From a virus (lineage: Duplodnaviria > Heunggongvirae > Uroviricota > Caudoviricetes), in the IMG/VR virus record IMGVR_UViG_3300042561_000621: DNA of 64,000 nucleotides. One strand, given 5' to 3'. Each line of letters starts with the position of its first letter. Position 1 is the first letter of the stretch. This document shows positions 2,346 to 42,699 of the stretch, in pieces. Made by a program: the position numbers and the translations under genes. The notes under the pieces are model-generated. The model saw only the letters and a program-made list of their open reading frames with translations. It had not been told where the DNA came from and made no database searches.

Positions 2346-2407
2346 GTATTTGTATACTGTAAATTAGTATTAAATATCAAACTTAATAGATGATTACTAC
2401 TTAATAT

Positions 2408-2959
2408 TCATTCATCTTTTAATTCTTCTTCATCAGGTTCTAAATAGTCAAGGGGGTTATAACCACTAATAGTAAAGTTACCTTTACCATTAGCTTCTAA
2501 TAAATCTTCTATTGTAGTTTTTTCTCTAACTTCTAATTCATGTATCATAAACCAACTAAATAGTTCTAATACTTCTCTATCCTTATCAACTTGGCCAAAG
2601 TATAAAGTCTTACCCATAGCACTTTGTACTTCTTGTTCAGTTGCTACAAACAAACCATACAAAGTTGTATAAAAGCATTCCAACTCAAATTTATATAGTT
2701 TTAAAGGATTCATAAGCTTTTGATAAGACTTCTCTACATAAGGCTGTTCTATATCCTCTGGAGGCAAACAATCATTAACATATCTATGCCATTTATTAAT
2801 AGACAATACACATCTATACATAAATGTTTTAGTATTTTCACTGTATATAGACCAATCAATAAGTTTACTATTTTCTCTTCTTTCCCAAATATCACCCTTA
2901 TAACTTACTTTTTGTATAGTAGTTGGGCCAATTGTAATTGGTGATTCTATGAGCTTCAT
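2408..2959 (-). CDS. hypothetical protein (183 aa)
   Basis: ORF begins 4 nt after the polymerase exon-3 stop codon. Confidence 0.5.
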   Translation of the reverse strand: MKLIESPITIGPTTIQKVSYKGDIWERRENSKLIDWSIYSENTKTFMYRCVLSINKWHRYVNDCLPPEDIEQPYVEKSYQKLMNPLKLYKFELECFYTTLYGLFVATEQEVQSAMGKTLYFGQVDKDREVLELFSWFMIHELEVREKTTIEDLLEANGKGNFTISGYNPLDYLEPDEEELKDE

Positions 2960-2962
2960 ATA

Positions 2963-3124
2963 TTATTTCTTCCAACAAGGAGCAATTGTAAGTGAACTAA
3001 ACCCACCAGTCTCACAACCAAAGTACTTATATAACATATCACCTTGCACCTTTTCCATCAAAAGTTTTAATTCATTACCAACTTCTTCTGCCATTGGTTT
3101 ATATAACTCATATACTATTTCATC
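2963..3124 (-). CDS. family-A DNA polymerase, exon 3 (C-terminal motif C region)
   Basis: Minus-strand translation DEIVYELYKPMAEEVGNELKLLMEKVQGDMLYKYFGCETGGFSSLTIAPCWKK*. Joined to exon 2 it gives ALVHDEIVYE, matching PolA motif C (QVHDELVFE). Confidence 0.75.
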   Translation of the reverse strand, partial: DEIVYELYKPMAEEVGNELKLLMEKVQGDMLYKYFGCETGGFSSLTIAPCWKK

Positions 3125-3370
3125 CCTACTGTTATTTAATACTCGTTTCCAGTATTAGCCTACCATTTCTAGTAGTGTCGGATCATATCATTAATAGTTA
3201 CATTAACTATTACCTGCCGCTTCAGGAACCACTAGGTCCTTACTCTCCTAAGAGATGATCTCTGCACTTTACCTATGTTATTAGGTCTTAGCTCAATGTT
3301 ACCTTATACTGTTACCATACTTAGGTTTCTTTGAATTCAACAAGTTTAATCTGCACAATGATAAAGGGTT
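3125..3370 (-). mobile_element. putative ORF-less group I intron (polymerase intron 2, about 246 nt)
   Basis: Interrupts codons VH|DE of PolA motif C. The upstream exon ends in U and the intron ends in G. R-like (UAAGACCUA) and S-like (GAUAUGAUCC) elements occur in the expected order. The interval has no ORF. Confidence 0.55.
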
Positions 3371-3499
3371 ATGCACAAGAGCTACAATGTTATTTCTAAC
3401 ATTATATCTATTATTAATGTCTTCCAGATATGTTTTTATAACTGGCAAAGTTACTTTTAATTGATCAGCACAAAAGCCTTGAACATCCTTTATTGTTAT
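3371..3499 (-). CDS. family-A DNA polymerase, micro-exon 2 (about 43 codons; 5' boundary +/-10 nt)
   Basis: Frame with no ATG reads (I)TIKDVQGFCADQLKVTLPVIKTYLEDINNRYNVRNNIVALVH. This aligns to the PolA PMQGTAADIIKRAM...MIMQVH segment that is absent from the flanking ORFs. Confidence 0.65.
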
Positions 3500-3772
3500 C
3501 CTAAAAGCTTTTTATCTTTTAGTTCTATAGCTTCTTATTAACTATAGTTCAGCATATTTTTTTATCCTTGCAAAGTTAATGCAGTGGGATATTAGAGTCT
3601 CTTGGCTATTTATATTCTGTTAGTCTTAACAGGTTCAATTAGCTATGCGTTGCCCCTGACTAGTTTATTACTACTTAGCCTTCGGTTCAGGTTATCATCT
3701 CAGACTTTCCTGCTTAATACTCTAATTATCATTTACTAATTACTTAGTAATGGGACATGTATTTTATCCGTT
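3500..3772 (-). mobile_element. putative ORF-less group I intron (polymerase intron 1, about 270 nt; boundaries +/-10 nt)
   Basis: Non-coding, locally GC-richer and structured interval between SAQRKGPN(G) of exon 1 and KDVQG of exon 2. R-like UAAGACUAACA and S-like CUGAACUAUAGUU elements lie just upstream of the 3' splice site. Confidence 0.5.
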
Positions 3773-5623
3773 AGGGCCCTTCCTCTGTGCTGAAGATTCA
3801 TTTCCTTTAGAATTAGCTTCATCTACATACAACCATCTAGAGGTTGGTAATCTAATTCTTTTACATCTAACACCTTCTTTAGAAGTAGTATCTAACCAAT
3901 GTTTAAGTTTATAAAATTGATTAAAATAACTAGTTAGTATCTTTCCTGCTTCTTCTACTGAACATTTTAAATCATTAGACAAACCTTGTTCAGTCTTACC
4001 ATAGATAACACTAAAATTTAATACTTTGCCTTGAAATCTATAATCAGCACCATCATGACCCTTTTCAGCCATCTCTCTAATTAGTTCAGGTGCATAAGTC
4101 TTTAAAGCAGGACATAAACCCATAGCAGCTACTGTATGAGGATCAGTGTAAGGATCTTCTACTGGTTTATTATCCTTATTAAGTATTTGATTACCCTTGC
4201 TATCAAGTAAATATAACTGCTTCTTCTTTTGATAAAAAGGTGCCAAGCCAGCTTCATCTTTAGCATATGCCATAGCAGTGAGTACCTCTTCTGCTACATA
4301 GTCTATACCAGCTATAACATAGTTGTCCCTAGCAATATAACCACTTCTAACATTAAACTTACCTCTTGCTATAACTTGTTGAAGATTCATTTTATACTTC
4401 TTATCTCCAACAATAATAGAACCAGATGAAGACATTCTTCCTGTGGCGGTTCCTACAGGATTAGTAGTAGCATGTAAGGCTCCACTTATAGGATTAACAA
4501 TACTGTTATACTTACTGATTTCTGTCTTTAGTTTTTCCTGCTTCTTATAAGTTATTAGAGTATTAATAACCTCTTTAGCTTCAGCTTTATTAGTAATGTT
4601 ATCAACATCTAAGTCTTCATCCTCATCATCAGAGTCATCTTCTTCTTCATTATCACTAGTTAAAAACTCTTTCATAATGACAGCATTTAATGCTGTCAAG
4701 TTAACTTTAAACTTACTATTAATAATAGAAGCTAACTTCTTAGGGTTGTTAAATACTTTAGTTACAAGAGGTGATACAGACATACATTGATGCAATACAC
4801 CCTCATCATCTTCTTGTAGTTCTACAGATAATGGCTGATCTAACTGTTTAGCAAGACTAATTTTAGTCTCATTAGATAGTAGTTCAAGCTCTTTAATAAA
4901 GCCAACCATCTTATCCTTATCAATGATAAAACCTACATATTCAACTATAGCTAGAATTCTCATAGCTTCTTGATCTAAGTTGAATGCATACTCTTCATCA
5001 TAGTCTTGTATTAAAGAATCTTTAACACTTAAAATTAAGTTTAACCATTCACTACTAACATCTCTAGCTGAATACTTTAGTTGTTCTGATGATAACAAAG
5101 GAGAAGACCAATCAGATGTTTGTAACTCTTTACTCATTACAACACCAGCAAAGTGTTTCATAATAACAGCTAAACCAGCACCTATTAACTTACCCTGTCT
5201 CCAACCTATACTCACATATAAAGTATTAAACATTACCATAGAACAATATATATTAGTAAGTTCTAAGTTGTAATGATGCTTAATCTGTCTTATTTCAAAA
5301 GCAGCATTATGAGCCCACACTATAAACTTAGAACTATCACTAAGTAATAATAATAAAGGTGTTATATCTACATTATTTAATTCAATAACAATAGGTGCTC
5401 CATCATTACCAATCCAATTAATACTAAGTAATCTAAGCTTATTACAATAAGGATCAATGCCACTACTAACAAGCCTAAATTCTTCTTTAACATACGTTTC
5501 AAAATCAATACCTACATTAACTATATTATTAATAGAAAGAGTTACAAGAGTATTAATAACATACTCTTGTAACTCTTTATTTGTAGTAATGTAGGAATAA
5601 TCATTATTCCTATGTGACAACAT
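3773..5623 (-). CDS. family-A DNA polymerase, exon 1 (3'-5' exonuclease domain, polymerase motifs A and B)
   Basis: TATGRMSSS; DYVAEEVLTAMAYAKDE (motif A-like); GKVLNFSVIYG (motif B); SAQRKGPN matches SAERAAIN. The ORF-track stop at 3764 lies inside the intron. Confidence 0.8.
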
Positions 5624-6449: not shown

Positions 6450-7472
6450 TTAAATTAAAGAATTAACATGATCTCTTAGAGCTATAAATAAAGGCTGTTC
6501 TGTTTTTAACTTAGTAGCTAAATTGCTTTCACCTTGTACTTTAATAGGCTCATCTGAACTTAAATTGGGCAAACTTAAAGTAATCCAAGAACCAGCTTGT
6601 TTAATAACATTTACATCTGGATGCTTGGCCATTCTAATCAAATCTATGTAAGGATTATACATAGTGTTAGTAATAGTTTTATCATCACTATCTTGTTCTA
6701 AATCTACTTGCATATCAATAGATCTCAATGCTCTACCATACTTTGATTTAATACATTTAATCTGTACATCAAAGTCATTAATACCTTGTTCATCAGGTGC
6801 TTTTAATGCTCTCTTACTAGTCATTAATCTAATACTAGCCCAATAAGGTAAACCCTTACCACCCATACTACCTTCAGGGTTACCATAACCACTCAAGTTA
6901 GTATTTCTAACTTGATTAATAAGAATAAGTACAACATTATGTTTCTTACACTTAACACTAAATTGTGGTAAGTTTTCACTTAACAATCTAGCTCTAACAC
7001 CCATAACATGAACATCCCCTACTTCTTTACTTTCATCTGTTAATTTCTCTGGAACAAGACCAGCAACACTATCAATAATAACAGCACAGAAGTCATCACT
7101 AAGATAAGATCTAGTACATTGTAAACCTTCTTCAGCACTAGTAGCATCTACTAATAATACCTTATCAGGATCTAATCCAACATTAGTAGCATGTGTACTA
7201 GTATAACCAAACTCACTAGCTTGTATATAACCAACAAACTTATCTGTTTGTTTTTGTAATTGAGCAGCTAAATACATAGCTAATAATGATTTACTTGTTT
7301 GTTCAGGACCATATATTTCAATAATAGTGCCATATGGAACGCCACCACCTAACAAGTAATTAATAGAAGGTGATTCTAACTTAAATCTTTGTACTTCAAC
7401 TTGATTACCAATACAAACTTGTTTCTTACCAACTACCTTTTCAGTTAGTTTTAAATACTCATTTAAATCCAT
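6450..7472 (-). CDS. RecA/UvsX-like recombinase
   Basis: LGGGVPYGTIIEIYGPEQTSKS (RecA P-loop region), VIIDSVAGLVP (Walker B), and overall RecA length and architecture. Confidence 0.8.
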   Translation of the reverse strand: MDLNEYLKLTEKVVGKKQVCIGNQVEVQRFKLESPSINYLLGGGVPYGTIIEIYGPEQTSKSLLAMYLAAQLQKQTDKFVGYIQASEFGYTSTHATNVGLDPDKVLLVDATSAEEGLQCTRSYLSDDFCAVIIDSVAGLVPEKLTDESKEVGDVHVMGVRARLLSENLPQFSVKCKKHNVVLILINQVRNTNLSGYGNPEGSMGGKGLPYWASIRLMTSKRALKAPDEQGINDFDVQIKCIKSKYGRALRSIDMQVDLEQDSDDKTITNTMYNPYIDLIRMAKHPDVNVIKQAGSWITLSLPNLSSDEPIKVQGESNLATKLKTEQPLFIALRDHVNSLI

Positions 7473-7525
7473 TATCCATATACCTTATAAGATTAAACTT
7501 AAAAGGCAAACTTAATAATTACAGA

Positions 7526-8092
7526 TTAATCTGGTTTTACATAATAAGTAGTTTCAGTATCAACATTAATCCCAGTAAACTTAATGTGATCCACTTCAAA
7601 TACCATTCTAGCTTTTAAAACAGTATCTTCTGTAAATAATTCTAAACTTAGAACACTAGGCATAGTAAGATCATTTAGTTTGATAGGACCTAAATCCCAA
7701 CCACTAAGTACAGCATCTTTATTTTTTTCTGGTAATCTATAAGTAGTAGGATCTTCTGCCCCTATTTCTAATGTAATAGCTTCTTTATTGTTTTCTACTT
7801 CTTTACTATCCCATGTAATCTCTTCTAATCCATCTAATTTAAACTTAGTTGGTGTTTTTCCAGGGCTAAAAATAGCAGTGAGATTAGTACATATATGATC
7901 TTTACCATCTATATTAACTACTAAATCATTATTACCGATCACAGCAGCTAATGAATATTTTCTAGAGTGTACTCTTATAGGACCAATTGATACATCATAA
8001 ATATTAAGCTCTTTATTAGTATGTATTGATTTAAGCTTACTATCTGGAATAGGGAGAAAGCATTTATTGCTTAGTGTTATGTTTGATAACAT
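7526..8092 (-). CDS. hypothetical protein (188 aa)
   Basis: ORF in the replication/recombination module. Confidence 0.45.
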   Translation of the reverse strand: MLSNITLSNKCFLPIPDSKLKSIHTNKELNIYDVSIGPIRVHSRKYSLAAVIGNNDLVVNIDGKDHICTNLTAIFSPGKTPTKFKLDGLEEITWDSKEVENNKEAITLEIGAEDPTTYRLPEKNKDAVLSGWDLGPIKLNDLTMPSVLSLELFTEDTVLKARMVFEVDHIKFTGINVDTETTYYVKPD

Positions 8093-8141
8093 ATTATTTA
8101 TTATTGTTTATACTAAATTTATATTAAAAGTTACATATTAA

Positions 8142-8606
8142 TTATTCTATATCTTTACAAAACCCTTCTAACCATTCTGGTGCTTCTTGTTCATTGGTAA
8201 CGCCAAAGTATAAAGCAATCCTACCTTTAGTGCCATATTTCTTCCAAGCTTGTTCATAATCTTTAACAGCTTGATAAGCATTCATAGCTCTTTGAACTGA
8301 GTCAGTTTCATCTTCTAATGTCCAAGTTCTACCTAAATATTCAAGCCAATTAGGATCTACATCATATAAATATTCATCAGATGTTTTATCAATAAGTTGA
8401 CCATACATATCCCTTGAAGGATCACCATATGTTAAATAATCATAATAAGCATCTTCTAAATCACTAAACACTTCTTGTATATAATTAACAACATTAAGTC
8501 TTTCTCTAGTCTTATTAATGCTTTTTAGTTTCTTTTTGTAGTTTTTATTACAATTCTTTATTTTATACAGTTTCTTGTCTAACATAACCATTCTCCAATT
8601 GTTCAA
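8142..8606 (-). CDS. hypothetical protein (154 aa)
   Basis: ORF; overlaps the upstream gene. Confidence 0.45.
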   Translation of the reverse strand: MNNWRMVMLDKKLYKIKNCNKNYKKKLKSINKTRERLNVVNYIQEVFSDLEDAYYDYLTYGDPSRDMYGQLIDKTSDEYLYDVDPNWLEYLGRTWTLEDETDSVQRAMNAYQAVKDYEQAWKKYGTKGRIALYFGVTNEQEAPEWLEGFCKDIE

Positions 8607-9033
8607 AGACTAACTTAGACATTATAAACACAGGACCATATTCTTTACTATGTATAATATGTATCTCATCTATTCTATATTCATCTTTAGTAACAGCTAG
8701 TTTATTAGTTGTTGTTCTACTTTTAATTGAGGTTGGAATTATATCACCATTAGGTAAATGTAAATTACCATCACCATCTCTAAACTTAGCACCGCTAGAT
8801 TCAGTGGCTTCTAATCCTAACTCTTTAACAAGATTATTTTCAACTGTTCTACCTCTTTTATTACACTCTTTACCCCTGGCTGATAATGTTAAATCTTTAC
8901 AAGGATGAGGTTCTTTTAATAATTTTGATAAAGGTTTATAGTATAACTTACCTTCACCTATAATTGCTAAACAAGATGAACATTTATCATCTCTATTCTT
9001 ACAGTTAGTTTCAAATTTAATGGGACAAGGCAT
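8563..9033 (-). CDS. putative Holliday-junction resolvase (Hjc-like PD-(D/E)xK nuclease) with N-terminal Cys zinc ribbon
   Basis: CPIKFETNC...CSSC zinc ribbon; VENNLVKELG...ESSGAKF...DIIPTSIKSR matches the Hjc pattern ER..L...G......SG......D+.A....IE.K. Confidence 0.4.
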   Translation of the reverse strand: MPCPIKFETNCKNRDDKCSSCLAIIGEGKLYYKPLSKLLKEPHPCKDLTLSARGKECNKRGRTVENNLVKELGLEATESSGAKFRDGDGNLHLPNGDIIPTSIKSRTTTNKLAVTKDEYRIDEIHIIHSKEYGPVFIMSKLVFEQLENGYVRQETV

Positions 9034-9104
9034 ACAATACTCTATACAATTTAATTTAAATTAAATACAAATAACAATAATAATACTAATTAATAAACAT
9101 AAAC

Positions 9105-19799: not shown

Positions 19800-21038
19800 A
19801 TGAGAAAAAATAAAGATAAAGGTATTTATAAAATAATAAATATTATTAATAATAAATATTATATAGGTTCTAGCGTTGATTTACAAAGTAGAAAAGCAAA
19901 TCATTTTAGAAAACTAAAAACAAATAAACATCATTGTGTTCATCTTCAAAATGCTTGGAATAAACATGGAGAAGAAAACTTTAAATGGGAAATAGTAGAA
20001 ATACTAAATGATTTAGATTTAGCTGAAATTAGAAAAGTAGAACAAAAATATATTGATGCTGATTTTAATAATCAATATAATATTGCAAAAGATACTATGG
20101 CTCCAGGAATTTATTCAGAAGAAGTAAAGCAAAAACAAATTAATGCTTGTAGAGATACAATAAGACCTAATAACAAAACAGGTCATACAGGTATTCATTA
20201 TTCAGAAAAAGAGAAAGATTATAGACCCTCTATACAAGTTTGGGGTATTAGAGTATTTCTTGGTTCTTATAAAACATTACAAGAAGCTATTAATAAAAGA
20301 AAAGAAGCTGAAGAATATTTTTGGCAACCTTGTATAGAAAAATTATCTAAAGAATTAAAACAATTAATTGTTAAACAATATAAAGAAGCTAATAAAATAG
20401 CTAGATCTAATACAAATGTTGAAGGAGTTGTTTATTCTAAAGATAGAGAATACACAGCTTATATAACAACTAAAGACAATATAGCAATTCATTTAAGTAC
20501 TAATCTAACTTTTAAACAAGCCTTAAAAGTTAGAAAAGAAGCAGAACAATATTTTTATTCAGAAGAATTTATAAATTTATCTTTTCAACAAAAAGAAGAA
20601 GCTATAAAACAATACAAAGACAAATTAAAAGGATGTAGAAATAAATCTGGCCATAAATTTGTTATATGGAATAAAAATACAAATGATTGGGTAGTTAAAC
20701 CTTTTATTGATAATAAATTAATAATGCTTGGCTATTATAAAGATTTGAATAAAGCTATAAAAGTAAAAAATGCGGCTTTATTATATTTTAACTCTACTGA
20801 ATTTTTATCTAATAATTTAGAAACTAGATTACAATTAGCACAAAACTATAAAAAAGAATGTTTATTAAATAAGAATAAAGATAAAGAACAAGGAATTTGT
20901 TATATTAAATCTAAATCTATTTGGAGGGCTTATATATTTTACAATGGTAAAAATATATCTTTAGGTCAATATCCAACTAAAGAAATGGCTCTTCAAGTTA
21001 GAAAAGAAGGAGAGTTAAAATATAGAAATAATACTTAA
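19800..21038 (+). CDS. free-standing GIY-YIG homing endonuclease with four AP2-like DNA-binding repeats
   Basis: GIYKIINIINNKYYIGSS...R...N GIY-YIG core, followed by four repeats of the type YRPSIQVWGIRVFLGSYKTLQEAINKRKEAEEYF; it lies on the strand opposite to its neighbours. Confidence 0.75.
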   Translation: MRKNKDKGIYKIINIINNKYYIGSSVDLQSRKANHFRKLKTNKHHCVHLQNAWNKHGEENFKWEIVEILNDLDLAEIRKVEQKYIDADFNNQYNIAKDTMAPGIYSEEVKQKQINACRDTIRPNNKTGHTGIHYSEKEKDYRPSIQVWGIRVFLGSYKTLQEAINKRKEAEEYFWQPCIEKLSKELKQLIVKQYKEANKIARSNTNVEGVVYSKDREYTAYITTKDNIAIHLSTNLTFKQALKVRKEAEQYFYSEEFINLSFQQKEEAIKQYKDKLKGCRNKSGHKFVIWNKNTNDWVVKPFIDNKLIMLGYYKDLNKAIKVKNAALLYFNSTEFLSNNLETRLQLAQNYKKECLLNKNKDKEQGICYIKSKSIWRAYIFYNGKNISLGQYPTKEMALQVRKEGELKYRNNT

Positions 21039-22982: not shown

Positions 22983-24401
22983 CTAATTATCTATTACTAA
23001 TAATTCACCAAATAAAGGAATATTACTCTCATTGTATTCCTTTTCTAATACTGTCCATATAACCTGTATAGAACCTTTATTATTAAATGGTTCTAATTCT
23101 TGTGGAACTCTTTCTAAGTATAAATCTGTTAATACAACAATTAAACATACATTATTAATATCAACTTGTTCAAAACCTTTATTAATAAACTGTTTAAAAA
23201 GAGGTATAACATCAGTACCTCCACCTCCTACTAAGTATTTATCTTTATGTTCTAATAACACATCAATAAGAGGTCTATCTAACTCACTCATATTAAATAA
23301 ATGAGTACCAGTAATGCTATCATCAAATGTTACTAAAAGTAAATTACCAACAACTTTACTAATACTATTAATTTGATCTAAGAAGTGATTTAAACATTCA
23401 ATGGAGCCATAAATACTACCAGATAAATCAACAAATACAGCTATTGTATCTGGCTCTGGCAGTCTAATATAAGGATGGTTAATAGCACATCTATTAAAAG
23501 GAGATAAACCCATTTCATAACCATAAAACTCCTCCTCGCTAACAATATTATAATTAGTTATAATCTTATCTGATAAAGAATTAGAAGCTATTTGTTTAAG
23601 TCTATCCTCCCATCTTAAATCACTACTTTGAATAGAATCTACATCAGAAGGTATTAACTTATTAGATAACTTTCCATGTTGCTTTTTCTTATCATTTCTA
23701 ATAGCATTAGCAGCCTTTTTAGTCAGATCTTTAAGGATTTCTTGTTGTTCTTCATTATTGTTAGTAGAATCAGCTTCTAAAACATCAAGATCTATCTCTT
23801 CTAACTTTATAGTAAGACCAGATGGTAATGTAATAGTATCTAAGTCATCATTATTACCATCTTGTTGTTGTCCCTTATTACTACCTCCACCACTAAACTT
23901 ACTATTAGTTAACACATAAGCAAGTAATTGTTCTTCTGTCCAATTATTATCATTAATTCTTGGATGATCTTTTTCTAAAAAAGTGGATAAAAAGACACCG
24001 CCTAAGTCACCAAAAGTATAACCCGCCTCTTTTAATGATTGATTAATAATAGCATCTTCAACTAGATTAAGTATATGGTTTAAGAAGTAAGCTTTATCAG
24101 CATATTGTTTATACAAACCCTTATTATGAAGACCAAATCTATAACTATGATTAAGATATATATGATACATCTCATGCAAAGTTAAAGTTATAAACTCACT
24201 TAACTTACTACTATCAGCCTCAATTTTATTAATGTAAGACTTATTATACATAATAGTATTATTAGTACAAGCTGCATAAGCAAAGTCATAATCCCCTATC
24301 TTAATACTAATAGCAGATAACAAATAAGCAAAAAATGGTTCAACTTTATTAACTAATAAATATATAGTTTTATCAGTAATCTTAAAACTTAGTTTAGACA
24401 T
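22983..24401 (-). CDS. VWA-domain protein with N-terminal zincin-like HExxH motif (DUF2201-like partner of a MoxR ATPase)
   Basis: TLHEMYHIYLNH (HExxH) and the MIDAS motif VDLSGSIYGS; overlaps the upstream AAA+ gene by 8 nt. Confidence 0.6.
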   Translation of the reverse strand: MSKLSFKITDKTIYLLVNKVEPFFAYLLSAISIKIGDYDFAYAACTNNTIMYNKSYINKIEADSSKLSEFITLTLHEMYHIYLNHSYRFGLHNKGLYKQYADKAYFLNHILNLVEDAIINQSLKEAGYTFGDLGGVFLSTFLEKDHPRINDNNWTEEQLLAYVLTNSKFSGGGSNKGQQQDGNNDDLDTITLPSGLTIKLEEIDLDVLEADSTNNNEEQQEILKDLTKKAANAIRNDKKKQHGKLSNKLIPSDVDSIQSSDLRWEDRLKQIASNSLSDKIITNYNIVSEEEFYGYEMGLSPFNRCAINHPYIRLPEPDTIAVFVDLSGSIYGSIECLNHFLDQINSISKVVGNLLLVTFDDSITGTHLFNMSELDRPLIDVLLEHKDKYLVGGGGTDVIPLFKQFINKGFEQVDINNVCLIVVLTDLYLERVPQELEPFNNKGSIQVIWTVLEKEYNESNIPLFGELLVIDN

Positions 24402-36775: not shown

Positions 36776-36812
36776 ATTGTTTTGTATATAAATACATTTA
36801 TAATAAAAACAA

Positions 36813-36845
36813 AAGGCGTTTTATATAATATAAAACGCCTTTTAT
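36813..36845. terminator. rho-independent terminator (GC-containing hairpin with T-runs on both sides)
   Basis: aaggcgtttta ... taaaacgcctt stem with flanking U-tracts. Confidence 0.65.
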
Positions 36846-36872
36846 TATTTACTATTTAGTTGTTATAAGAAC

Positions 36873-37190
36873 TTAGTCTTCATCTTCTAAGTAGTAATCA
36901 TCATCACTATCATAATATGAATAGTCTTCATCTTCTAAATCACCATCCCCATCATAATCACCTAATGAAGGAACATTATAACTCCTATAAAGCACTTTAT
37001 CAATTTCACCCTTATCATATGTATATTCTGATAAAGGAGTATAAGCACAAGTTCTAATTTTACTATTGTTATAGTCTCTAGGAATAGCAACAATGTCTGC
37101 TGGATCTACTTCACATAGTAGAATAGCATCATGTCCTGACACTGCTGAACCATAGTGAGGTAAGTATTGCCAACTGCAAACGTGTCAATT
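36873..37190 (-). CDS. 3' exon of split gene C (C-terminal acidic tail); function unknown
   Basis: The frame is open upstream of the annotated start (HVCSWQYLPHYGSAVSGHDAILLCEVDPADIV...) with no ATG, and the exon lies downstream of a LAGLIDADG-bearing intron. Confidence 0.45.
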
Positions 37191-38038
37191 TTTGTTATCT
37201 TAAGGGCTTTTTATCCCCTAATTCTAATCCTTTCGGTTTATAATGATTTAATAAATAATTATTATATTTTCTATTTATTGATAAACATTTACTGTAATAA
37301 ATTTCAGATAAGAATCTATTACCACTTACTTTTAAAGTTAATTTATAAGTGTTATTTTGTTTACTAATAGAAAAGCAGTTTCCATAATTATTTAATATAT
37401 ATTGGCTTAGTTGATTAATAAAAACTTCACTTGCTGATACTATGCAAGCTTGTCTACTTAAACAACCATCTCCATCCCAACAACCTCTTATTAAATCAAG
37501 CATATAAATACTATCTATATTAGGCAAACTAACAGTAAAAGATTTCTTCTGAGTAATTGAATATTTCTCTAAATCTTTAACCATTTGTTTACATCCAATA
37601 CATAACAAAACGTATTTATCTTCTATTACTTTAAGACAATAATTATCTACACCTAAATCTAAAAGAAATTTATCTAATATATCTTTATCTTTTATGTGTA
37701 GTTTTATATTTACTGTTTTGCCTCGATGGATATATCCATCACTTAAAATAAGTCCAAGAAAATAAGCTTTATTTGAAGAATCTATATTTTCAAAGTAATT
37801 TTTGGGCCAATTGTATTTAATCATTATATATTAGTTCAGACTATCTCTTCATCCTATTATACTATAGGATGTCCCTGCCTCGTGGATTTATTATATTCTG
37901 ATACTTCTATCAGGTTCAAAATCTAGTCGTTGCACCTGGTTAATATATTATTACTAACCTTCAGTTGCTGATTGCCATATACTATTATTAGTACTTAGGT
38001 TTCCAGTTTATTTCAGGGATTTATTACCTATTAATTAC
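37191..38038 (-). mobile_element. group I intron carrying a LAGLIDADG homing endonuclease gene (boundaries +/-20 nt)
   Basis: An S-like GAAGAGAUAGUCUGAAC and an R-like GCAACGACUAG element (minus-strand RNA) are present. It shares the sequence blocks tagtcgttgca and agttcagactat with the GH19 intron. The core is GC-richer than flanking DNA and has no ORF. Confidence 0.55.
37195..37824 (-). CDS. LAGLIDADG homing endonuclease (double-motif)
   Basis: AYFLGLILSDGYI and LIRGCWDGDGCLS. Confidence 0.75.
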   Translation of the reverse strand: MIKYNWPKNYFENIDSSNKAYFLGLILSDGYIHRGKTVNIKLHIKDKDILDKFLLDLGVDNYCLKVIEDKYVLLCIGCKQMVKDLEKYSITQKKSFTVSLPNIDSIYMLDLIRGCWDGDGCLSRQACIVSASEVFINQLSQYILNNYGNCFSISKQNNTYKLTLKVSGNRFLSEIYYSKCLSINRKYNNYLLNHYKPKGLELGDKKPLR

Positions 38039-38041
38039 TTA

Positions 38042-38638
38042 ATAGGAGGCCACTACATTTAGCCCATGACTACAAGTTTGATCAATATTATCATCAACAA
38101 AGTTCCTCTGTACCACTACAGGAACATTAAACATTTGTTTAAATGTCTTTGTATATAAATCAAGAAACACTTCTTTATCATCTGTTCTCTTTACAATCTT
38201 ATACATGATTAAGTTGCCCTTTTCATTGATAACAATGTTATTAGCTTCAATGAAGTCAAACAAGCATCTATTAACCCTATAAGAAGGATTAAGTCTAACC
38301 TTTTCCCAGAACTTAATTAAAGGTGTAATAGAAGACTCATCTTGTTCATACATTGCAATAAGTGTTTTGTTTAAAGATGGTGGTAATTGTTCTACTTGGC
38401 CCTCTTTATTAGTATATGTTACTAAACCTTCTCTAGTAATAGTAACACCTAACTTAGTACTAACTTGAGTTACAACATCAAATAGTTTAATAATAGCTTC
38501 TTCATCTTTATTTCTAATAAGTTCTAATACTTTATTATACTTATCTTCATTTGTATATTTATGTATTGTTACTGGTTTGCCCTTTACAATTATATTTAAT
38601 GTGTTATTTGTGCTATTTAAAATATAGTTAATTGTCAT
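38042..38638 (-). CDS. 5' exon of split gene C (200 aa); function unknown
   Basis: ATG at 38638 overlaps the stop of the upstream gene; the product ends ...QTCSHGLNVVASY at the intron boundary. Confidence 0.45.
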
Positions 38639-40289
38639 TTGTTTCTTCTTTTTCTGTATTATTATTTTGATGTTTGTTATAAAAATCAACTAACTCAATG
38701 TAGTGTGTAATATGACTTTTATTTTGTATATTATTATAACCATAAGAATTAATACTACCTTTAATAATAGGATATGTATTATCTATATCTTGTATTAAAT
38801 CCCTCATATTAAAAGCGCCATGTTTAAGTTCTAACAGACCTTCACTAATAAAATGATTTATTAACTGTTTATGTTTTAACTTAGTATCAAATACTTTAGC
38901 ATCTTCTAAAAACATTGTTATAGGATGATTAGGATGTTCTTTAATAAAATCTGTTTTATATTCAATTTCATTAATATAATTAGATCTATAACTGTTTAAA
39001 TATAAAGTAAAGTTACTATTTAAAACACTAAAATCATCTAGTATAAGTTGAATTAAATCAGTCCAACTATCTTTAACAAGACTTACATCATTAACAACAT
39101 ATATGTCTTTATTTATATAATTAAATAGTAAGGGTTTTAAATAAGTATTAACATACTTACTATAAAAGTCCATTGATATATAATAAACATTCTTACTTAG
39201 CAACTCTTTACTAATGTTTAATTCTCTACCAATCTCACCATCATATGTTGATAATCTATAACACTTTTTGTTTGTTTTAACTGATGCTTTTCTAACTTTA
39301 GTTGCTTTAACAAGTCTATCAACTGGTAAGAAATTAGATAAACATGGTAAATTATAGTAATTATTATCAATGTTATTAACAAGAATAATCTTACTAAGAT
39401 CTGATTCTACATCTTCACATTGTTCTAACTCTTTAACTGTTGGAATATAATTTAAATCATTGTAATAATATATTTTAGAGCTATAAAAACGTTCACCATA
39501 AGTAGAAGTATAAGGATTACATTTATAACTCTTTTTAGTACTTAGGTATCTAACAATATCACACAACCATTTTCTATCACTAACAGTTTTACCACTCCAA
39601 TTAACACTATCAGTATTAAAGTTATTCTTATATAAGAAAGTTAAAACATCTGTAAAACATGTAAAATCTTTAACTTTAATAGCAACTAACTCTTTATAGT
39701 CTTCTACTATTTGAGTGATTAAAGAACATAATGTATTCTTTGTTCTAGTACTAAGTTGTACATTCTTATCAGCAGCTTGATCAATGGAGCCAATAGGTAT
39801 ATTAAACACTACAGCATTAGTTCTTAATCTAGATTCAATATAGCCATATACATCACTATTTAAAGTATATTTTAAGTCTTGTAATTTAATATAGTTAGGT
39901 AAACCACCAATTAAACCCACCAAATTGTTAGCATTTGCAAAAGATGTAGCATGTGTTTTAAATGATTTAAACTCTTCATTATAGATTGGTGGCTGAACTA
40001 AAACACCATCAATGTTTACATTAGTTAAGTATTTAGTATGTTCTTTAACATAGTTAGATAAAGTAGTAAAGTCTTCATTTTTAATCTCAAATGAAATAGA
40101 AACACCCGTTAGTTCTTCTTCATTGTTAGTTACATTTTCTTCTAGTAATAGAGAAACAAAGACTTTATTGTTGTCTTTACTAATTACATACTCTCTCTTA
40201 TACTTGGCACCATCACTATCAATTGTAATACAAGTAGCAGTGTATAAGTCTGTATATGCTAAAGGTGACATTCTGCCAATTCCTACATG
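38628..40289 (-). CDS. GHKL-family ATPase, GyrB / type II topoisomerase ATPase-subunit-like, 3' exon
   Basis: In the joined product DVLGG|IGRMSPLAY resembles the G2 box (GGLHGVGVSVVNALS); LSTRTKNTL resembles the transducer QTK loop (SSQTKDKL); LYTATCITIDSDGAKYKREY resembles LELVIQREGKIHRQIY. Confidence 0.45.
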   Translation of the reverse strand, partial: HVGIGRMSPLAYTDLYTATCITIDSDGAKYKREYVISKDNNKVFVSLLLEENVTNNEEELTGVSISFEIKNEDFTTLSNYVKEHTKYLTNVNIDGVLVQPPIYNEEFKSFKTHATSFANANNLVGLIGGLPNYIKLQDLKYTLNSDVYGYIESRLRTNAVVFNIPIGSIDQAADKNVQLSTRTKNTLCSLITQIVEDYKELVAIKVKDFTCFTDVLTFLYKNNFNTDSVNWSGKTVSDRKWLCDIVRYLSTKKSYKCNPYTSTYGERFYSSKIYYYNDLNYIPTVKELEQCEDVESDLSKIILVNNIDNNYYNLPCLSNFLPVDRLVKATKVRKASVKTNKKCYRLSTYDGEIGRELNISKELLSKNVYYISMDFYSKYVNTYLKPLLFNYINKDIYVVNDVSLVKDSWTDLIQLILDDFSVLNSNFTLYLNSYRSNYINEIEYKTDFIKEHPNHPITMFLEDAKVFDTKLKHKQLINHFISEGLLELKHGAFNMRDLIQDIDNTYPIIKGSINSYGYNNIQNKSHITHYIELVDFYNKHQNNNTEKEETNDN

Positions 40290-40359
40290 TTATTCCTGTA
40301 TTACTACAGGCATGGACTATATCATCATTAATAATTTAATATTAATGCGGGACGCTGTA

Positions 40360-40968
40360 CTATATATTTATTGCTTTATACTTCATACATTCAATTTGAT
40401 TAACATAAGGTCTTACTATTTCTAAGAATCTTCTACCTTCTTTAGTAGACATTCTTAGTCTGTATAGATTTTTATGCTTTGTTATCTTCCAAGTAATATC
40501 CCATTTATCTTGAAAATATTTAACTATTGTTTCATTTTCTTCTTTTGATAAATAAGTACTAAGAACTAATTCCCAAGCATGTATCTTGCCATTTCTTTTC
40601 TTAGGATATAAAGAACCATCATCCATCCACCAAATAGCTAATCCTATAGGAGTTAATCTATTTAAAGCTTTAAGAGGTATAGTTTTTACTTTATTTTTAT
40701 ATAAATATTTATGTAAAACTCTAAAATATTTATGTCCTTTTTCTAAGATAACAGCGGGATATTTCCTATTAACTATCTGTCTAACATTTATATTAGATTG
40801 AAAGATATTTCTAATTAAATTAGCTTTCCAATCTAAATATTCTTTTTGTTTTAGACAGTGAGTAATGGTCAACCTACCATATAATGAAGCATGACTAGGT
40901 TTTGCAACGCAGCCATCTCCAAAAATAATTCCCATCAATATTGAAATGTTTTCTTTTGTTTTTAGCAT
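40360..40968 (-). CDS. LAGLIDADG homing endonuclease (double-motif), located between the R and S elements (P8-loop position)
   Basis: LMGIIFGDGCVAK and LAIWWMDDGSLY. Confidence 0.7.
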   Translation of the reverse strand: MLKTKENISILMGIIFGDGCVAKPSHASLYGRLTITHCLKQKEYLDWKANLIRNIFQSNINVRQIVNRKYPAVILEKGHKYFRVLHKYLYKNKVKTIPLKALNRLTPIGLAIWWMDDGSLYPKKRNGKIHAWELVLSTYLSKEENETIVKYFQDKWDITWKITKHKNLYRLRMSTKEGRRFLEIVRPYVNQIECMKYKAINI

Positions 40969-41098
40969 ATCTTTTCACACTCTTGGCGTGGATATAAAAT
41001 AATATAGATAGTCTCTGAACCTTCAGAAAATATATCTTCTGCTTGGCTGCTGATTGCCCTCAACACTACTTGGTGGGGTTTCCAGCAATTCATCCCGT

Positions 41099-41767
41099 TT
41101 AAAGTGGACAAGGCTTTTTATTTTTACTATACTCATTACTATTAAAATTTTTGCTCCAAGTAAAATTATTTATGACATCCCACTTTCTTTGTAGATACAA
41201 AGCATTATGATTTGTCATTAAATTTACTAAATTTATTATGCTAGTTTGACGACCAACTTTTAACTCATATTGGTTTCTTCTTGCAACTACACAATATCTA
41301 ATGTCATATTCATCATAGATAGCCATTATATATTTAAAGAACGAAGCACAATTTCCATATATTGTAATTCTTTTATTATTAGTTGAATTAACATATACAT
41401 TACCATCACCATCAAAAACACCTCTTAAGAAATCACCAGGATATAATAATTTTCCAGGATTACCTAATAGATCTTTGTTCTTCATACTTTTACTTGGCAC
41501 TAAACCATGACTCATTAAATCAATAACTAACTGTTTGCTATAACAATAGATTAACCAGCATTTATGATACTTTTCTTTTTTAGGTAAACAAAAGAAAGGA
41601 AACACTTCAACTATTCTATCTAATAATTCAACATCATTAATTTTGATTCTGCAACAGTAAGATTGTCCAATATTATTTGTAATAGATCCATCACTATAAA
41701 ATTAAACCTAATAAATAAGCTTTATTTGGAGTGTCAATTATTTTAAATTCATCAGTATATTTCATAA
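41099..41767 (-). pseudogene. frameshifted LAGLIDADG homing endonuclease gene
   Basis: ATG at 41767 gives MKYTDEFKIIDTPNKAYLLGLIL, then a stop. The +1 frame continues FYSDGSITNN...FDGDGNVY, so a single indel falls inside LAGLIDADG motif 1. The N-terminal region is nucleotide-homologous to the HEG at 37195..37824. Confidence 0.55.
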
Positions 41768-41837
41768 TTAGATAATAGTTATTTTATTATCTAATTATAG
41801 CAAAAAGTTATATAAGTTAAACATACCTTATATACTT

Positions 41838-42176
41838 TTATCCACCTAATACATCATTACTAGTACTTTTAGTTGAAAGTCCTACTTTAGTGTATTCATT
41901 CAACATAAACTCTTTACTAATACCATTAGCATAATCTCTAATAGTTATATTATTAGTAAAGTAATTAGGAAGCCAAATGTCTACTGGCCTAGTTATATTG
42001 TGTTTACTATGTTCATCCAGAGAATTGCTGCAAACTTCCTTAAATGCAGCAAGTAAAGTGTTGCTATAAATATTATTTCTAAGAAGACTAATAATAAGAC
42101 CAGATCTTTCTTCATCTATAGAAAAAACATTCTGGTCTAAATTAGTACTAATATTCTCATTTATTGTTGGAATCAT
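41838..42176 (-). CDS. GHKL-family ATPase (GyrB-like), 5' exon
   Basis: EVCSNSLDE (N box, ExxxNSxDE) and ITIRDYANGIS (G1 box, IxVxDNGRGIP); ends ...STKSTSNDVLGG at the intron. Confidence 0.45.
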   Translation of the reverse strand: MIPTINENISTNLDQNVFSIDEERSGLIISLLRNNIYSNTLLAAFKEVCSNSLDEHSKHNITRPVDIWLPNYFTNNITIRDYANGISKEFMLNEYTKVGLSTKSTSNDVLGG

Positions 42177-42243
42177 AAATTACATTATTAAGTTAAAGTA
42201 CAAATTACTCCTTAATAACAAACTTAAATAAAATAGGTGCAAA

Positions 42244-42699
42244 TTAAAGTTTATGTGTTCTTAAATTATCTTTTAACTCAGTTCTAAGTTGTTCTAAATA
42301 CTCAATGATCCATTTATGACCAGCATCAATTTGTTTACCATTAAACACATAATAATGACTAAAGGGTAAAGTAGAATCTACAAAGTTAAAGTATTGAGGA
42401 CCACCAGCAACTTTGATTTTAATGGCCTGTTTAATAATAGATTTAAACTCATCATCAGATAATGTTACAACTTTAGGTAAAGATCTACCTAACTGTTTAG
42501 CAGCAAAGCCAGACATTGATTTAAGTCTATTATCTCTAGTTGATAACCAATACCACAAACCTTCAATTGAATCAAATCTACCAAGGGATTCTAAATTTAT
42601 AGGATATCTATACCAGTTAGATAAGAAAACACCTAACACAGTTTTACCTTGTGAATAAATATTAATATGATCAATACCATCATTATTTGGATCAAACAT
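42244..42699 (-). CDS. hypothetical protein; weak NADAR/YbiA-like pattern
   Basis: VLGVFLSNWYRYP...FDSIEGLWYWL loosely resembles the LSNF...F.S.EH NADAR core. Confidence 0.25.
   Translation of the reverse strand: MFDPNNDGIDHINIYSQGKTVLGVFLSNWYRYPINLESLGRFDSIEGLWYWLSTRDNRLKSMSGFAAKQLGRSLPKVVTLSDDEFKSIIKQAIKIKVAGGPQYFNFVDSTLPFSHYYVFNGKQIDAGHKWIIEYLEQLRTELKDNLRTHKL

Follow-up and report, generated by a model that had tools for sequence, protein, structure and literature searches.

Layout of the locus

The window, by which we mean the whole 64,000-nucleotide stretch of DNA that was analyzed, comes from an uncultivated, large, AT-rich phage with a family-A DNA polymerase, a UvsX-like recombinase, and tail-fiber genes. 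All features described here lie on its minus strand. A gene assigned by its sequence to rIIA is present in two pieces: exon 1 (41840 to 42176), delimited with the PHROG profile phrog_612 and intronless homologues, holds 112 codons and the first base of codon 113, and exon 2 (38628 to 40285) opens with UAGGAAUU and completes codon L113 and the G2 box GG-L-GIGRMSP. The pieces are separated by a subgroup-IA-like group I intron (40286 to 41839), delimited from its Rfam matches and an alignment of relatives; its exact length is 1,554 nt, close to the 1.55 kb originally estimated. Rfam Intron_gpI and Pfam matches bear out the original prediction that this group I intron carries two LAGLIDADG genes, here called ORF-A and ORF-B.

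The adjoining gene, rIIB (36873 to 38638), is also split. It matched phrog_609 (E = 2e-26 and 5e-9), PF26926 matches the rIIB of relatives, and its start at 38638 overlaps the rIIA stop. Within it we found a second group I intron of 875 nt (37186 to 38060; Rfam, 46.6 bits, E = 2.5e-10), in which an open reading frame forms a third LAGLIDADG gene (37195 to 37824). The spliced rIIB product would have 296 residues, the length of intact rIIB in the relatives L001 and L008.

The interrupted gene and its predicted splice junction

On profile and neighborhood evidence, the interrupted phage gene is rIIA, which encodes a GHKL-fold protein and has rIIB next to it. The RIIA profile phrog_612 matched exon 1 alone (E = 1.8e-17) and an earlier trial splice that was two residues shorter at the junction (E = 3.5e-29), the latter in a single stretch over residues 9 to 536 of 661; more than 2,000 tblastn matches to annotated rIIA genes span the exon junction. 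The full-length profile match is thus accompanied by an rIIB gene directly 3′ of it. Exon 1 carries the N box EVCSNSLDE (N51, D54) and the G1 box IRDYANGIS (D81, G85) of the GHKL ATPases, which together with the G2 box and the Bergerat fold place the product in that group. The original prediction of one split gene with these three boxes at its N terminus is supported.

Joining the exons gave a product of 664 residues with 93% identity to the intronless homologue P0001; intronless metagenomic homologues as a group were 76 to 93% identical to it. P0001 to P0009 among them are continuous across the junction, and homologues of 666 to 672 residues (76 to 92% identity) read GG[L/I]G[I/L]GRMSP there. 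The exon 1 open reading frame (41838 to 42176) terminates at NDVLGG and a stop codon, and the frame upstream of the open reading frame at 38628 to 40271 reads (HV)GIGRMSPLAY. No junction other than that between GGTGGAT and TAGGAATT combined a canonical U and a terminal G with restoration of both length and frame; this junction reads GG-L-GIG and replaces the GG/IGR junction first proposed. The apparent TAA stop of exon 1 straddles this junction, its T being the final exon base. An intein was also considered and rejected: a stop codon straddles the exon 1/intron junction, both open reading frames have their own starts, and noncoding ribozyme sequence lies between them and the exons.

A single group I ribozyme core

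An Rfam scan of the whole window gave no intron match. When the region was searched alone, Intron_gpI (RF00028) matched at 40985 to 41094 (38.8 bits, E = 6.7e-8) and at 40294 to 40408 (26.5 bits, E = 3e-4); with ORF-B splitting the core, neither piece reaches the gathering score of 50. In L001, the copy of this intron that lacks ORF-B scored 84.1 bits (E = 1e-21), and its identity to the window is 93.6% and 97% over the parts common to both.

The predicted 5′ splice site lies after U41840, which forms a U·G wobble, and the omega G is at 40286. In P1, exon GGUGGAU (41846 to 41840) pairs over 7 bp with the guide GUCCACU (41109 to 41103), a span of 737 nt; this helix is paired 7/7 in all lineages and invariant, so that complementarity alone speaks for it. 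In P10, AGG of exon 2 pairs with CCU (41113 to 41111), with a compensatory change to UGG/CCA in L004. A U·G pair in P1 with an internal guide, a terminal G, and P10 are therefore all present at the splice sites, and the junction that they define agrees with the intronless homologues. In an alignment of five lineages, which are related to one another, 97.8% of the cells of the 100 modeled pairs were paired. Compensatory changes occurred at 16 pairs, some of them in the P3/P7 pseudoknot and in P10; shuffles gave 5.4 ± 1.9 (0/500) and slid controls 1 to 4. In the window sequence itself, every core helix is paired along its full length.

The intron begins with a 5′ leader in the P1 loop (41766 to 41839), for which RNAfold gave two hairpins, P1a (41839 to 41803; two compensatory pairs) and P1b (41796 to 41766; 12 bp, 96.6% of cells paired), the second of which directly abuts the ATG of ORF-A. 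Beyond ORF-A lies the 5′ half of the core (41009 to 41097), made up of the P3 5′ strand CGGGAUG (41097 to 41091), P4, P5, P6/P6a, and the R element. This element had been predicted as GGTTCAGAGACTA and is present at 41021 to 41009, where the RNA GGUUCAGAGACUA includes the P7 5′ strand GACUA. The 3′ half (40286 to 40356) consists of the P3 3′ strand CGUCCCG (40354 to 40348), P8 (40347 to 40326), the P7 3′ strand UAGUC (40319 to 40315), P9 (40310 to 40295), and the omega G. The P7 strand lies inside the S element, which exists as predicted in the form ATATAGTCC, at 40322 to 40314, some 10 to 15 nt from where it had been placed. Compensatory changes were found in P3 (2), P5 (1), P6a (4), and P7 (1) for the 5′ half and in P8 (3) and P9 (1) for the 3′ half. 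The hairpins P7.1 and P7.2, an IA trait located between P7 and the P3 3′ strand, occur in L001, L003, and L039, the relatives without ORF-B, and the ORF-B cassette occupies the place of the hairpins in the window; the missing hairpins might make self-splicing weaker.

Two endonuclease genes in different loops

ORF-A is a double-motif LAGLIDADG gene (phrog_4645; LAGLIDADG_3/WhiA-like) that homologue alignment and Pfam matches place at 41099 to 41765; the end first given was right, and the start moves from 41767 to 41765. Both the P10 strand CCU and the internal guide GUCCACU fall within its final codons. An additional T in the run of T's at 41701 to 41698 leads to a premature TAG at 41696 to 41694, and the alignment, which took in the intact 221-, 219-, and 220-residue ORFs of L001, L003, and L004, confirms the single-nucleotide frameshift predicted for motif 1: TTTT stands against TTT in the intact homologues and is the sole indel relative to them. 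The repaired ORF-A has the motifs LLGLIYSDG and LRGVFDGDG and matched LAGLIDADG_WhiA (2e-10), LAGLIDADG_3 (2.4e-9), and Hom_end (3e-5) in Pfam. It is otherwise 97% identical to the intact L001 homologue (dN/dS, 0.04), and to judge from this ratio ORF-A, apart from the extra T, is under strong purifying selection. To call the gene decaying, as had been done, is thus too strong for a lone homopolymer insertion. Two more independent ORF-A null alleles occur in L039 (TAC to TAA) and L040 (TGG to TGA), and we therefore regard its inactivation as real and recurrent in these populations.

ORF-B (40360 to 40968) is, as predicted, an intact LAGLIDADG gene; it encodes 202 residues with the motifs LMGIIFGDG and LAIWWMDDG and belongs to the LAGLIDADG_2 family (PF03161, E = 2e-37; phrog_11023, E = 7.6e-20). 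It forms part of a 652-nt cassette (40357 to 41008), bounded by comparison with L001 and L003, that consists of a 40-nt leader, the gene, and 3 nt, has ends that pair with each other (CUAUAU/AUAUAG), and stands in place of the 60-nt P7.1/P7.2 hairpins. L001, L003, and L039 lack the cassette. In L004 it has identical bounds and is 96.6 to 97.5% identical in nucleotide sequence to that of the window, against about 80% for the remaining intron. The ORF-B protein family comprises one cluster at 96%, with nothing next above 58%, and homologues in other phage introns occupy the same slot after P7. A cassette identity of about 97% with a lineage whose rIIA is about 40% identical suggests that the ORF-B cassette is mobile on its own.

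Distribution among relatives

The rIIA alleles of relatives occur in intronless, one-ORF, and two-ORF states, and all intron-bearing alleles found contain ORF-A. The insertion site is identical in L004 and L039, whose rIIA proteins are just 40 to 50% identical, and close relatives are intronless. The site GGTGGAT^T[A/T]GG is common to 5/5 intron-bearing lineages, and all three intronless alleles use other synonymous codons there. Between the window and L004, identity is about 80% for the intron, about 97% for the ORF-B cassette, and 56% for exon 2. From these alignments, presence and absence alleles appear to share one site, with intron identity far above that of the host gene. The three states and the independent ORF-A nulls are consistent with the homing-endonuclease life cycle that the original prediction had read into the locus.

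Comparison with known systems

Sellem and Belcour are said to have described, in 1997, a bi-ORF mitochondrial group I intron in Podospora anserina, nad1-i4, in which each of two loops carries an endonuclease ORF; relatives reportedly have just one ORF, which was taken as evidence for ORF mobility independent of the intron. The intron described here likewise has one ribozyme, two endonuclease ORFs, and relatives with one. It differs from nad1-i4 in belonging to a bacteriophage rather than a fungal mitochondrion, in that one ORF replaces P7.1/P7.2, and in that near-identical cassettes lie in introns about 80% identical.

The self-splicing T4 td, nrdB, and nrdD (sunY) group IA2 introns with I-TevI, I-TevII, and I-TevIII are likewise group I introns in phage protein genes (PMC3073962, PMC3984707, PMC2988022). 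They resemble the present intron, which is apparently also of IA type, P7.1/P7.2 being seen here in the ORF-B-less relatives, in that a peripheral loop houses an endonuclease gene whose 3′ end overlaps ribozyme elements, in having an in-frame stop shortly after the 5′ splice site and a hairpin beside the endonuclease gene start, and in their presence/absence polymorphism across related phages. However, the host genes here are rIIA and rIIB, the endonucleases are LAGLIDADG rather than GIY-YIG or HNH proteins, ORF-A occupies the P1 loop and has the guide in its last codons, and this intron has two endonuclease genes. Our literature search found no published intron in rIIA or rIIB. These genes themselves resemble T4 rIIA and rIIB in order, in PHROG and Pfam family matches, and in the N-terminal GHKL motifs, whereas the window rIIA is at most 27% identical to that of any cultured phage and is known from sequence alone.

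A LAGLIDADG_2 (phrog_11023) intron ORF, from the same PHROG family as ORF-B, has been reported in Bacillus Bastillevirinae phages, and phiAGATE and Moonbeam have frameshift-split HNH genes inside introns (PMC11878797). ORFs located in P1 are known from the Synechocystis tRNA-fMet intron (I-Ssp6803I) and the Physarum LSU intron (I-PpoI) (Table 1 in PMC3073962). The overlap of the Synechocystis ORF with P1/P2 is matched here by that of ORF-A with the P1 guide strand ("core creep"), but I-Ssp6803I and I-PpoI belong to the PD-(D/E)xK and His-Cys box families and their host genes encode RNA.

Proposed mechanism and alternatives

We conclude, with a probability of roughly 0.88, that rIIA holds a mobile IA-like group I intron that carries two LAGLIDADG homing endonuclease genes and is predicted to be self-splicing. 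The intron would have inserted after base 1 of codon 113, within the G2 box of the GHKL ATPase domain. As the structure implies, the last seven exon bases would pair with the guide 737 nt downstream at the end of ORF-A; the U·G wobble would set the 5′ splice site and G40286 the 3′ splice site, and CCU beside the guide would pair with AGG among the first bases of exon 2. Ligated exons would restore NDVLGG-L-GIGRMSPLAY, and the junction-straddling TAA would halt ribosomes on unspliced RNA. From what is known of LAGLIDADG proteins, ORF-A is the candidate endonuclease for homing of the intron into intronless rIIA, and the ORF-B cassette, between P7 and the P3 3′ strand, may be exchanged independently as a unit. 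If the base call is correct, ORF-A would have just been inactivated in the window by the additional T, with ORF-B intact.

A GyrB/topoisomerase-II-type ATPase required for replication, as had been predicted, is an extremely unlikely identity for the interrupted gene. The topoisomerase II profile phrog_543 did match, just at E = 1.4e-4, far behind both rIIA profile matches; a fold search returned generic GHKL matches, with Hsp90-family chains scoring equal to or above topoisomerase II, and a Pfam search of the gene product found no DNA_gyraseB, TOPRIM, or GyrB C-terminal domain. Since the adjoining gene is rIIB and the annotated tblastn matches are rIIA genes, neither "GyrB-like" nor "essential replication gene" describes it. 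Two separate elements, either a twintron or two adjacent introns with one endonuclease gene each, would accommodate endonucleases from different LAGLIDADG families, and in the phiNIT1 DNA polymerase gene an intervening sequence with two nucleases was read as sequential colonization by two introns (PMC11878797). We consider this very unlikely at rIIA, where the 1,554 nt contain one R/S pair and one P3-P9 set, the 652-nt cassette has no ribozyme match, and the cassette-free form in L001 is a complete intron. With one ribozyme core only, the element is therefore not a twintron, and the suggestion of a twin-ORF intron was correct.

That the ORF-A frameshift stems from an error of sequencing or assembly in a homopolymer, leaving a fully functional two-endonuclease intron with nothing decaying, is possible, if on balance doubtful. 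The lesion is one T in an otherwise intact gene with low dN/dS, and L004 to L006 and L041 to L043 have the same layout with both ORFs intact; against this stand the independent nulls in L039 and L040, and four bases make a short run for an Illumina assembly to get systematically wrong. A dead intron remnant, with rIIA a pseudogene or a two-piece gene in this phage, is an unlikely reading. T4 rII genes are nonessential on most hosts, and the absent P7.1/P7.2 and broken ORF-A would fit such a remnant, yet both exons are intact at 93% identity to P0001, the core helices are all paired, and the L004 lineage, represented by many independently sampled contigs, has intact exons together with this same two-ORF layout that lacks P7.1/P7.2. 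We regard the two-endonuclease intron in rIIA as belonging to a known kind of selfish element, of which it is a well-documented natural case, and not to a new kind.

rIIA gene interrupted by the intron

The locus lies in AT-rich DNA (~27% GC in the window) with all of its features on the minus strand, and it includes an exon-1 ORF of 112 aa (42176..41838) that ends ...STSNDVLGG* and an exon-2 ORF (40271..38628) whose reading frame is open upstream of the ORF, from ...HVGIGRMSPLAY. In PHROG profile searches, exon 1 by itself matched the RIIA families (phrog_612, E value = 1.8e-17) and reached the topoisomerase II family phrog_543 at an E value of 1.4e-4 only; exon 2 by itself had no match, and the joined exons matched phrog_612 in one stretch covering residues 9 to 536 (E value = 3.5e-29). 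A tblastn search against phage genomes returned >2,000 records at identities of up to 27%, with alignments that crossed the junction and matched genes annotated rIIA. The next gene downstream is rIIB, which matched phrog_609 in two pieces (E values = 2e-26 and 5e-9) and which carries Pfam PF26926 (Phage_T4_rIIB) in relatives. Pfam searches found no gyrase domain and no TOPRIM domain in the rIIA region or the spliced protein, nor did any Pfam family match the correctly spliced rIIA; a PDB sequence profile search yielded nothing relevant, and megablast of 36800-42300 against phage genomes gave no match. Structure prediction was performed on P0001, a homologue 92% identical to the spliced window protein.

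Judged by its sequence, the interrupted gene is rIIA and not GyrB. The original prediction had described a GyrB-like, essential replication gene, which was wrong given the far better rIIA profiles, the rIIB gene downstream, and the lack of gyrase and TOPRIM domains in Pfam; its reading of the GHKL motifs stands, though without a specific link to gyrase. The correction removes an annotation trap in which gene callers split rIIA into unrelated ORFs of 112 aa and 547 aa and likewise call rIIB as two pieces; both mis-splits occur in many metagenomic phage contigs.

Exon junction and insertion site

A search of ~5.8 billion proteins identified intronless full-length homologues (P0001 to P0009; 666 to 672 aa, 76 to 92% identity) with the motif ...N(D)xLGG[L/I]G[I/L]GRMSPLAY. 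Exon 1 ends ...GGTGGAT at 41840, with a T that also opens the apparent TAA stop, and exon 2 begins TAGGAATT at 40285; in-frame stops immediately past the 5' splice site are known from other introns (PMC3073962). Only one junction gave the homologue length and frame and also put a U ahead of the 5' splice site and a G ahead of the 3' one. The spliced product has 664 aa and reads NDVLGG-L-GIGRMSPLAY, and the predicted ligated junction is ...TTAGGTGGAT-TAGGAATTGGC. The group I intron (41839..40286; 1,554 nt) splits codon 113 within the G2 box, and G111, G112, G114, and G116 are invariant across the rIIA family. We also considered a junction between GATGTAT and TAGGAATT (..NDVLGIGRM), which conforms to the U and G rules and pairs with GUAUAU, and dropped it because its product would fall 2 aa short of every intronless homologue.

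The insertion site has the sequence GGTGGAT^T(A/T)GG in the intron-bearing alleles of all five lineages. DNA was available for three intronless alleles (L008, L045, and L046; GGA GGN YTG GG), which read GGAGGGC^TGGGC, GGAGGAC^TGGGA, and GGAGGCT^TGGGA, encoding the same amino acids by different synonymous codons. In the window, the site comprises 41846..40278 (joined); an intronless version would read GGTGGATTAGGAATTGG. The codon difference is compatible with exon flanks having been co-converted during homing, together with a constraint from P1 and P10; it also fits intronless alleles that would be cleavage-resistant variants, and the codon data do not distinguish between the two.

Architecture of the group I ribozyme

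Over the whole window, Rfam returned nothing at either the gathering threshold or the E-value threshold; the intron halves emerged only when ~2 kb was searched by itself. Searched in this way, Intron_gpI matched one piece spanning P3 to P7 (41094..40985; 38.8 bits, E value = 6.7e-8) and one covering P8, P7', and P9 (40408..40294; 26.5 bits). The R element is GGTTCAGAGACTA (41021..41009) and the S element, 3' of ORF-B, is ATATAGTCC (40322..40314). The related contigs L001/L002 and L003 lack ORF-B but share the intron and its position (93.6% and 88.7% nucleotide identity), and the contiguous core of ORF-B-less relatives scored 84.1 bits with Rfam (E value = 1e-21), with hairpins P7.1 and P7.2 between P7 and P3' in an IA-like architecture.

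We counted covariation in a hand-built structure on five aligned lineages (window, L001, L003, L004, and L039). Across 100 modelled pairs, 97.8% of cells were paired, and both-sided changes occurred in 16 pairs, versus 5.4±1.9 in shuffles (0/500) and 1 to 4 with slid partners. The compensatory pairs were distributed over P6a (4), P8 (3), P1a and P3 (2 each), and P10, P5, P7, P7.2, and P9 (1 each). P1 pairs GGUGGAU (41846..41840) with GUCCACU (41109..41103), with a U·G wobble at the splice site; it does not vary among the lineages, its support being complementarity only. P10 is AGG/CCU and in L004 becomes UGG/CCA. Because the final codons of ORF-A (..P-C-P-L-stop) contain the guide, ORF-A, the first of the two LAGLIDADG genes, is placed in the P1 loop. 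Overlap of an ORF 3' end with a ribozyme element is known in other introns, as is a hairpin abutting the endonuclease start codon (PMC3073962).

The predicted intron with twin LAGLIDADG ORFs proved right, with one core and two ORFs. Its features exist at nearly the positions first assigned to them, the start of ORF-A (41765) having been 2 nt off and the R and S elements roughly 10 to 15 nt. A twintron was ruled out by the single R/S pair and single core in the intron, and an intein was rejected. Elsewhere in the window, R/S-like motifs at 8601(+), 15037(-), and 15614(-) were without Rfam support. By analogy with the intron family, guanosine-initiated self-splicing would restore the rIIA mRNA.

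ORF-A and its loss

ORF-A (41765..41099; phrog_4645) was present in every intron-bearing allele found. In the window, it is broken after AYLLGLIL* and resumes in another frame as YSDGSITNN..., owing to a single indel relative to the intact 221-aa ORF of L001 (TTTT for TTT at 41701..41698). When repaired, the protein shares 97% identity with the L001 ORF and matches LAGLIDADG_WhiA, LAGLIDADG_3, and Hom_end. The substitutions (31 synonymous and 7 non-synonymous, dN/dS 0.04) imply that ORF-A had, until very recently, been kept under purifying selection. A search for exact patterns at the frameshift site had no match in metagenome or viral contigs, and the contig listed in JGI 3300059473 begins downstream of it, inside the C-terminal part of ORF-A. 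The one-nucleotide frameshift of the original prediction is present in the window sequence as an apparent lesion, and the description of the gene as decaying is weakly supported, since it rests on one homopolymer base.

Two further alleles bear on this loss. Over 1,645 nt, L039 and L040 differ by two substitutions only, and each introduces a stop codon into ORF-A (TAC to TAA in L039, in the stretch 2501-3169; TGG to TGA in L040, in the stretch 428-1096). On these sequences, ORF-A loss is real in this intron family, and the nonsense pair suggests a non-random process, namely, selection for loss of the ORF-A endonuclease. As expected of its family, an intact ORF-A product would cleave the stretch of intronless rIIA that codes for the G2 box, after which repair would copy the intron in.

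ORF-B cassette and its probable mobility

ORF-B (40968..40360) is intact and encodes 202 aa with a LAGLIDADG_2 domain (Pfam E value = 2e-37). It lies in a 652-nt cassette (41008..40357) that stands in place of the 60-nt P7.1/P7.2 region, to which it showed no similarity above shuffled controls. A cassette with identical ends occurs in the L004 lineage (L004-L006, L009/L011, and L041-L043), where both ORFs are intact. The ORF-B protein family consists of one 96% cluster, then nothing above 58%, and in other viral contigs, distant homologues (51 to 59%) within related introns occupy exactly this slot, straight after ...GGTTCA(G/A)(A/C)GACTA. In L012-L017 (~2360-3230 each), those LAGLIDADG_2 genes follow the P7 5' strand with a similar leader of ~40 nt, and the P4-P6 cores are related.

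Between the window and L004, nucleotide identity was 96.6 to 97.5% in ORF-B plus its leader, 81.5% in ORF-A, 79 to 84% in the ribozyme core, 68 to 72% in the exon flanks, and 56% in the rest of exon 2; the rIIA proteins of the window and the L004 lineage are ~40% identical. From this gradient we infer that the intron passed between divergent phages after they had split from each other and that the ORF-B cassette was exchanged more recently still; the cassette therefore appears to behave as a unit of its own. Going by its family, the ORF-B product would promote the spread of the cassette that encodes it, possibly through cleavage of introns that lack ORF-B, and it may act as a maturase too, a role suggested by the absence of P7.1/P7.2.

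A bolder reading, which we regard as possible but rather unlikely, is that the two homing endonuclease genes are selfish elements independent of each other, both housed in a single ribozyme and in conflict with splicing. Under this reading, the ORF-B cassette would home into intron DNA itself, at the P7.1/P7.2 region, which, if true, explains why ORF-B is 97% identical across introns of ~80% identity in hosts whose rIIA proteins share ~40%. The stop of ORF-A falls just past the internal guide sequence, and so ribosomes finishing ORF-A would, speculatively, unwind P1; in td, splicing suffers when ribosomes translate I-TevI into core elements (Gibb & Edgell 2010, cited in PMC3073962). ORF-A null alleles could then, again speculatively, be positively selected for better rIIA splicing. 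Such selection, if true, accounts for three independent and very recent knock-outs, i.e., the +1 T of the window and the stops of L039 and L040.

rIIB intron and genome context

The rIIB gene (38638..36873) is interrupted by a second group I intron (38060..37186; 875 nt, Rfam 46.6 bits, E value = 2.5e-10), with P1 formed by GGGCU/GGCCU and the terminal G present. Its spliced product of 296 aa corresponds to the intact rIIB of relatives, and the predicted ligated junction is ...CATGGGCT-ACACGTTTGC. A third LAGLIDADG gene (37824..37195; 209 aa) lies 3' of P9 and belongs to the same PHROG as ORF-A, at 32% identity. The contigs L007 and L008 encode one identical intronless rIIA protein (P0009), and their rIIB genes (~7013-9058 and 7013-7903) differ: one is intact (296 aa), whereas in the other an intron containing a LAGLIDADG ORF of 271 aa splits the gene at the position also used in the window, a presence/absence polymorphism. 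In the distant two-ORF lineage (L004, at 2787-3486, and also L005 and L006), rIIA exon 1 is split near the N box, into a 57-aa and a 63-aa piece, by an extra, ORF-less group-I-like intron whose R element is at 3104 and whose S element is at 3232; the rIIA gene of this lineage therefore has two introns.

Further window genes encode a UvsX-like recombinase, tail-fibre proteins, and HNH endonucleases; this content points to an uncultivated large phage, and related contigs reach 257 kb. Large free-standing HNH/homing-endonuclease-like genes lie at 19800..21038 (+; phrog_99/314) and 22983..24401 (-; phrog_1314), and the genome is rich in selfish nucleases. No tRNA genes were found in the 64 kb. The family-A DNA polymerase (3764..5623, -; 619 aa) shares only ~30% identity with the Ma-LMM01-type polymerases of Microcystis phage; in the records of the latter, the match spans separate exonuclease and polymerase features.

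Relation to known systems

Phage genes with mobile group I introns are a classical finding, and the mechanism here is of a known kind. Group I introns with two ORFs occur in fungal mitochondria, Podospora nad1-i4 reportedly among them. Full-text searches of one open-access library found no report of rIIA or rIIB introns. Phage introns mostly carry GIY-YIG, HNH, PD-(D/E)xK, or EDxHD enzymes, and LAGLIDADG enzymes are found mainly in organelles, bacteria, and archaea (PMC3984707). A LAGLIDADG_2 intron ORF is described in a Bacillus phage DNA polymerase, along with frameshift-split intron HNH genes (PMC11878797); that LAGLIDADG_2 ORF and ORF-B share a PHROG family.

Sequence analysis shows which gene is interrupted, where its exons join, how the ribozyme is built, and which series of alleles exists. 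On these findings, rIIA and rIIB join the phage genes hosting mobile group I introns, with the one in rIIA interrupting exactly the G2 ATP-binding motif, and LAGLIDADG endonucleases are seen to circulate in environmental phages. The natural allele series, comprising intronless, one-ORF, and two-ORF alleles together with three different ORF-A nulls, is unusually informative: it offers ready material on the endonuclease gain-and-loss cycle and is suited to studying the independent mobility of intron ORFs and to gauging how costly translation is when an ORF overlaps a ribozyme guide sequence.
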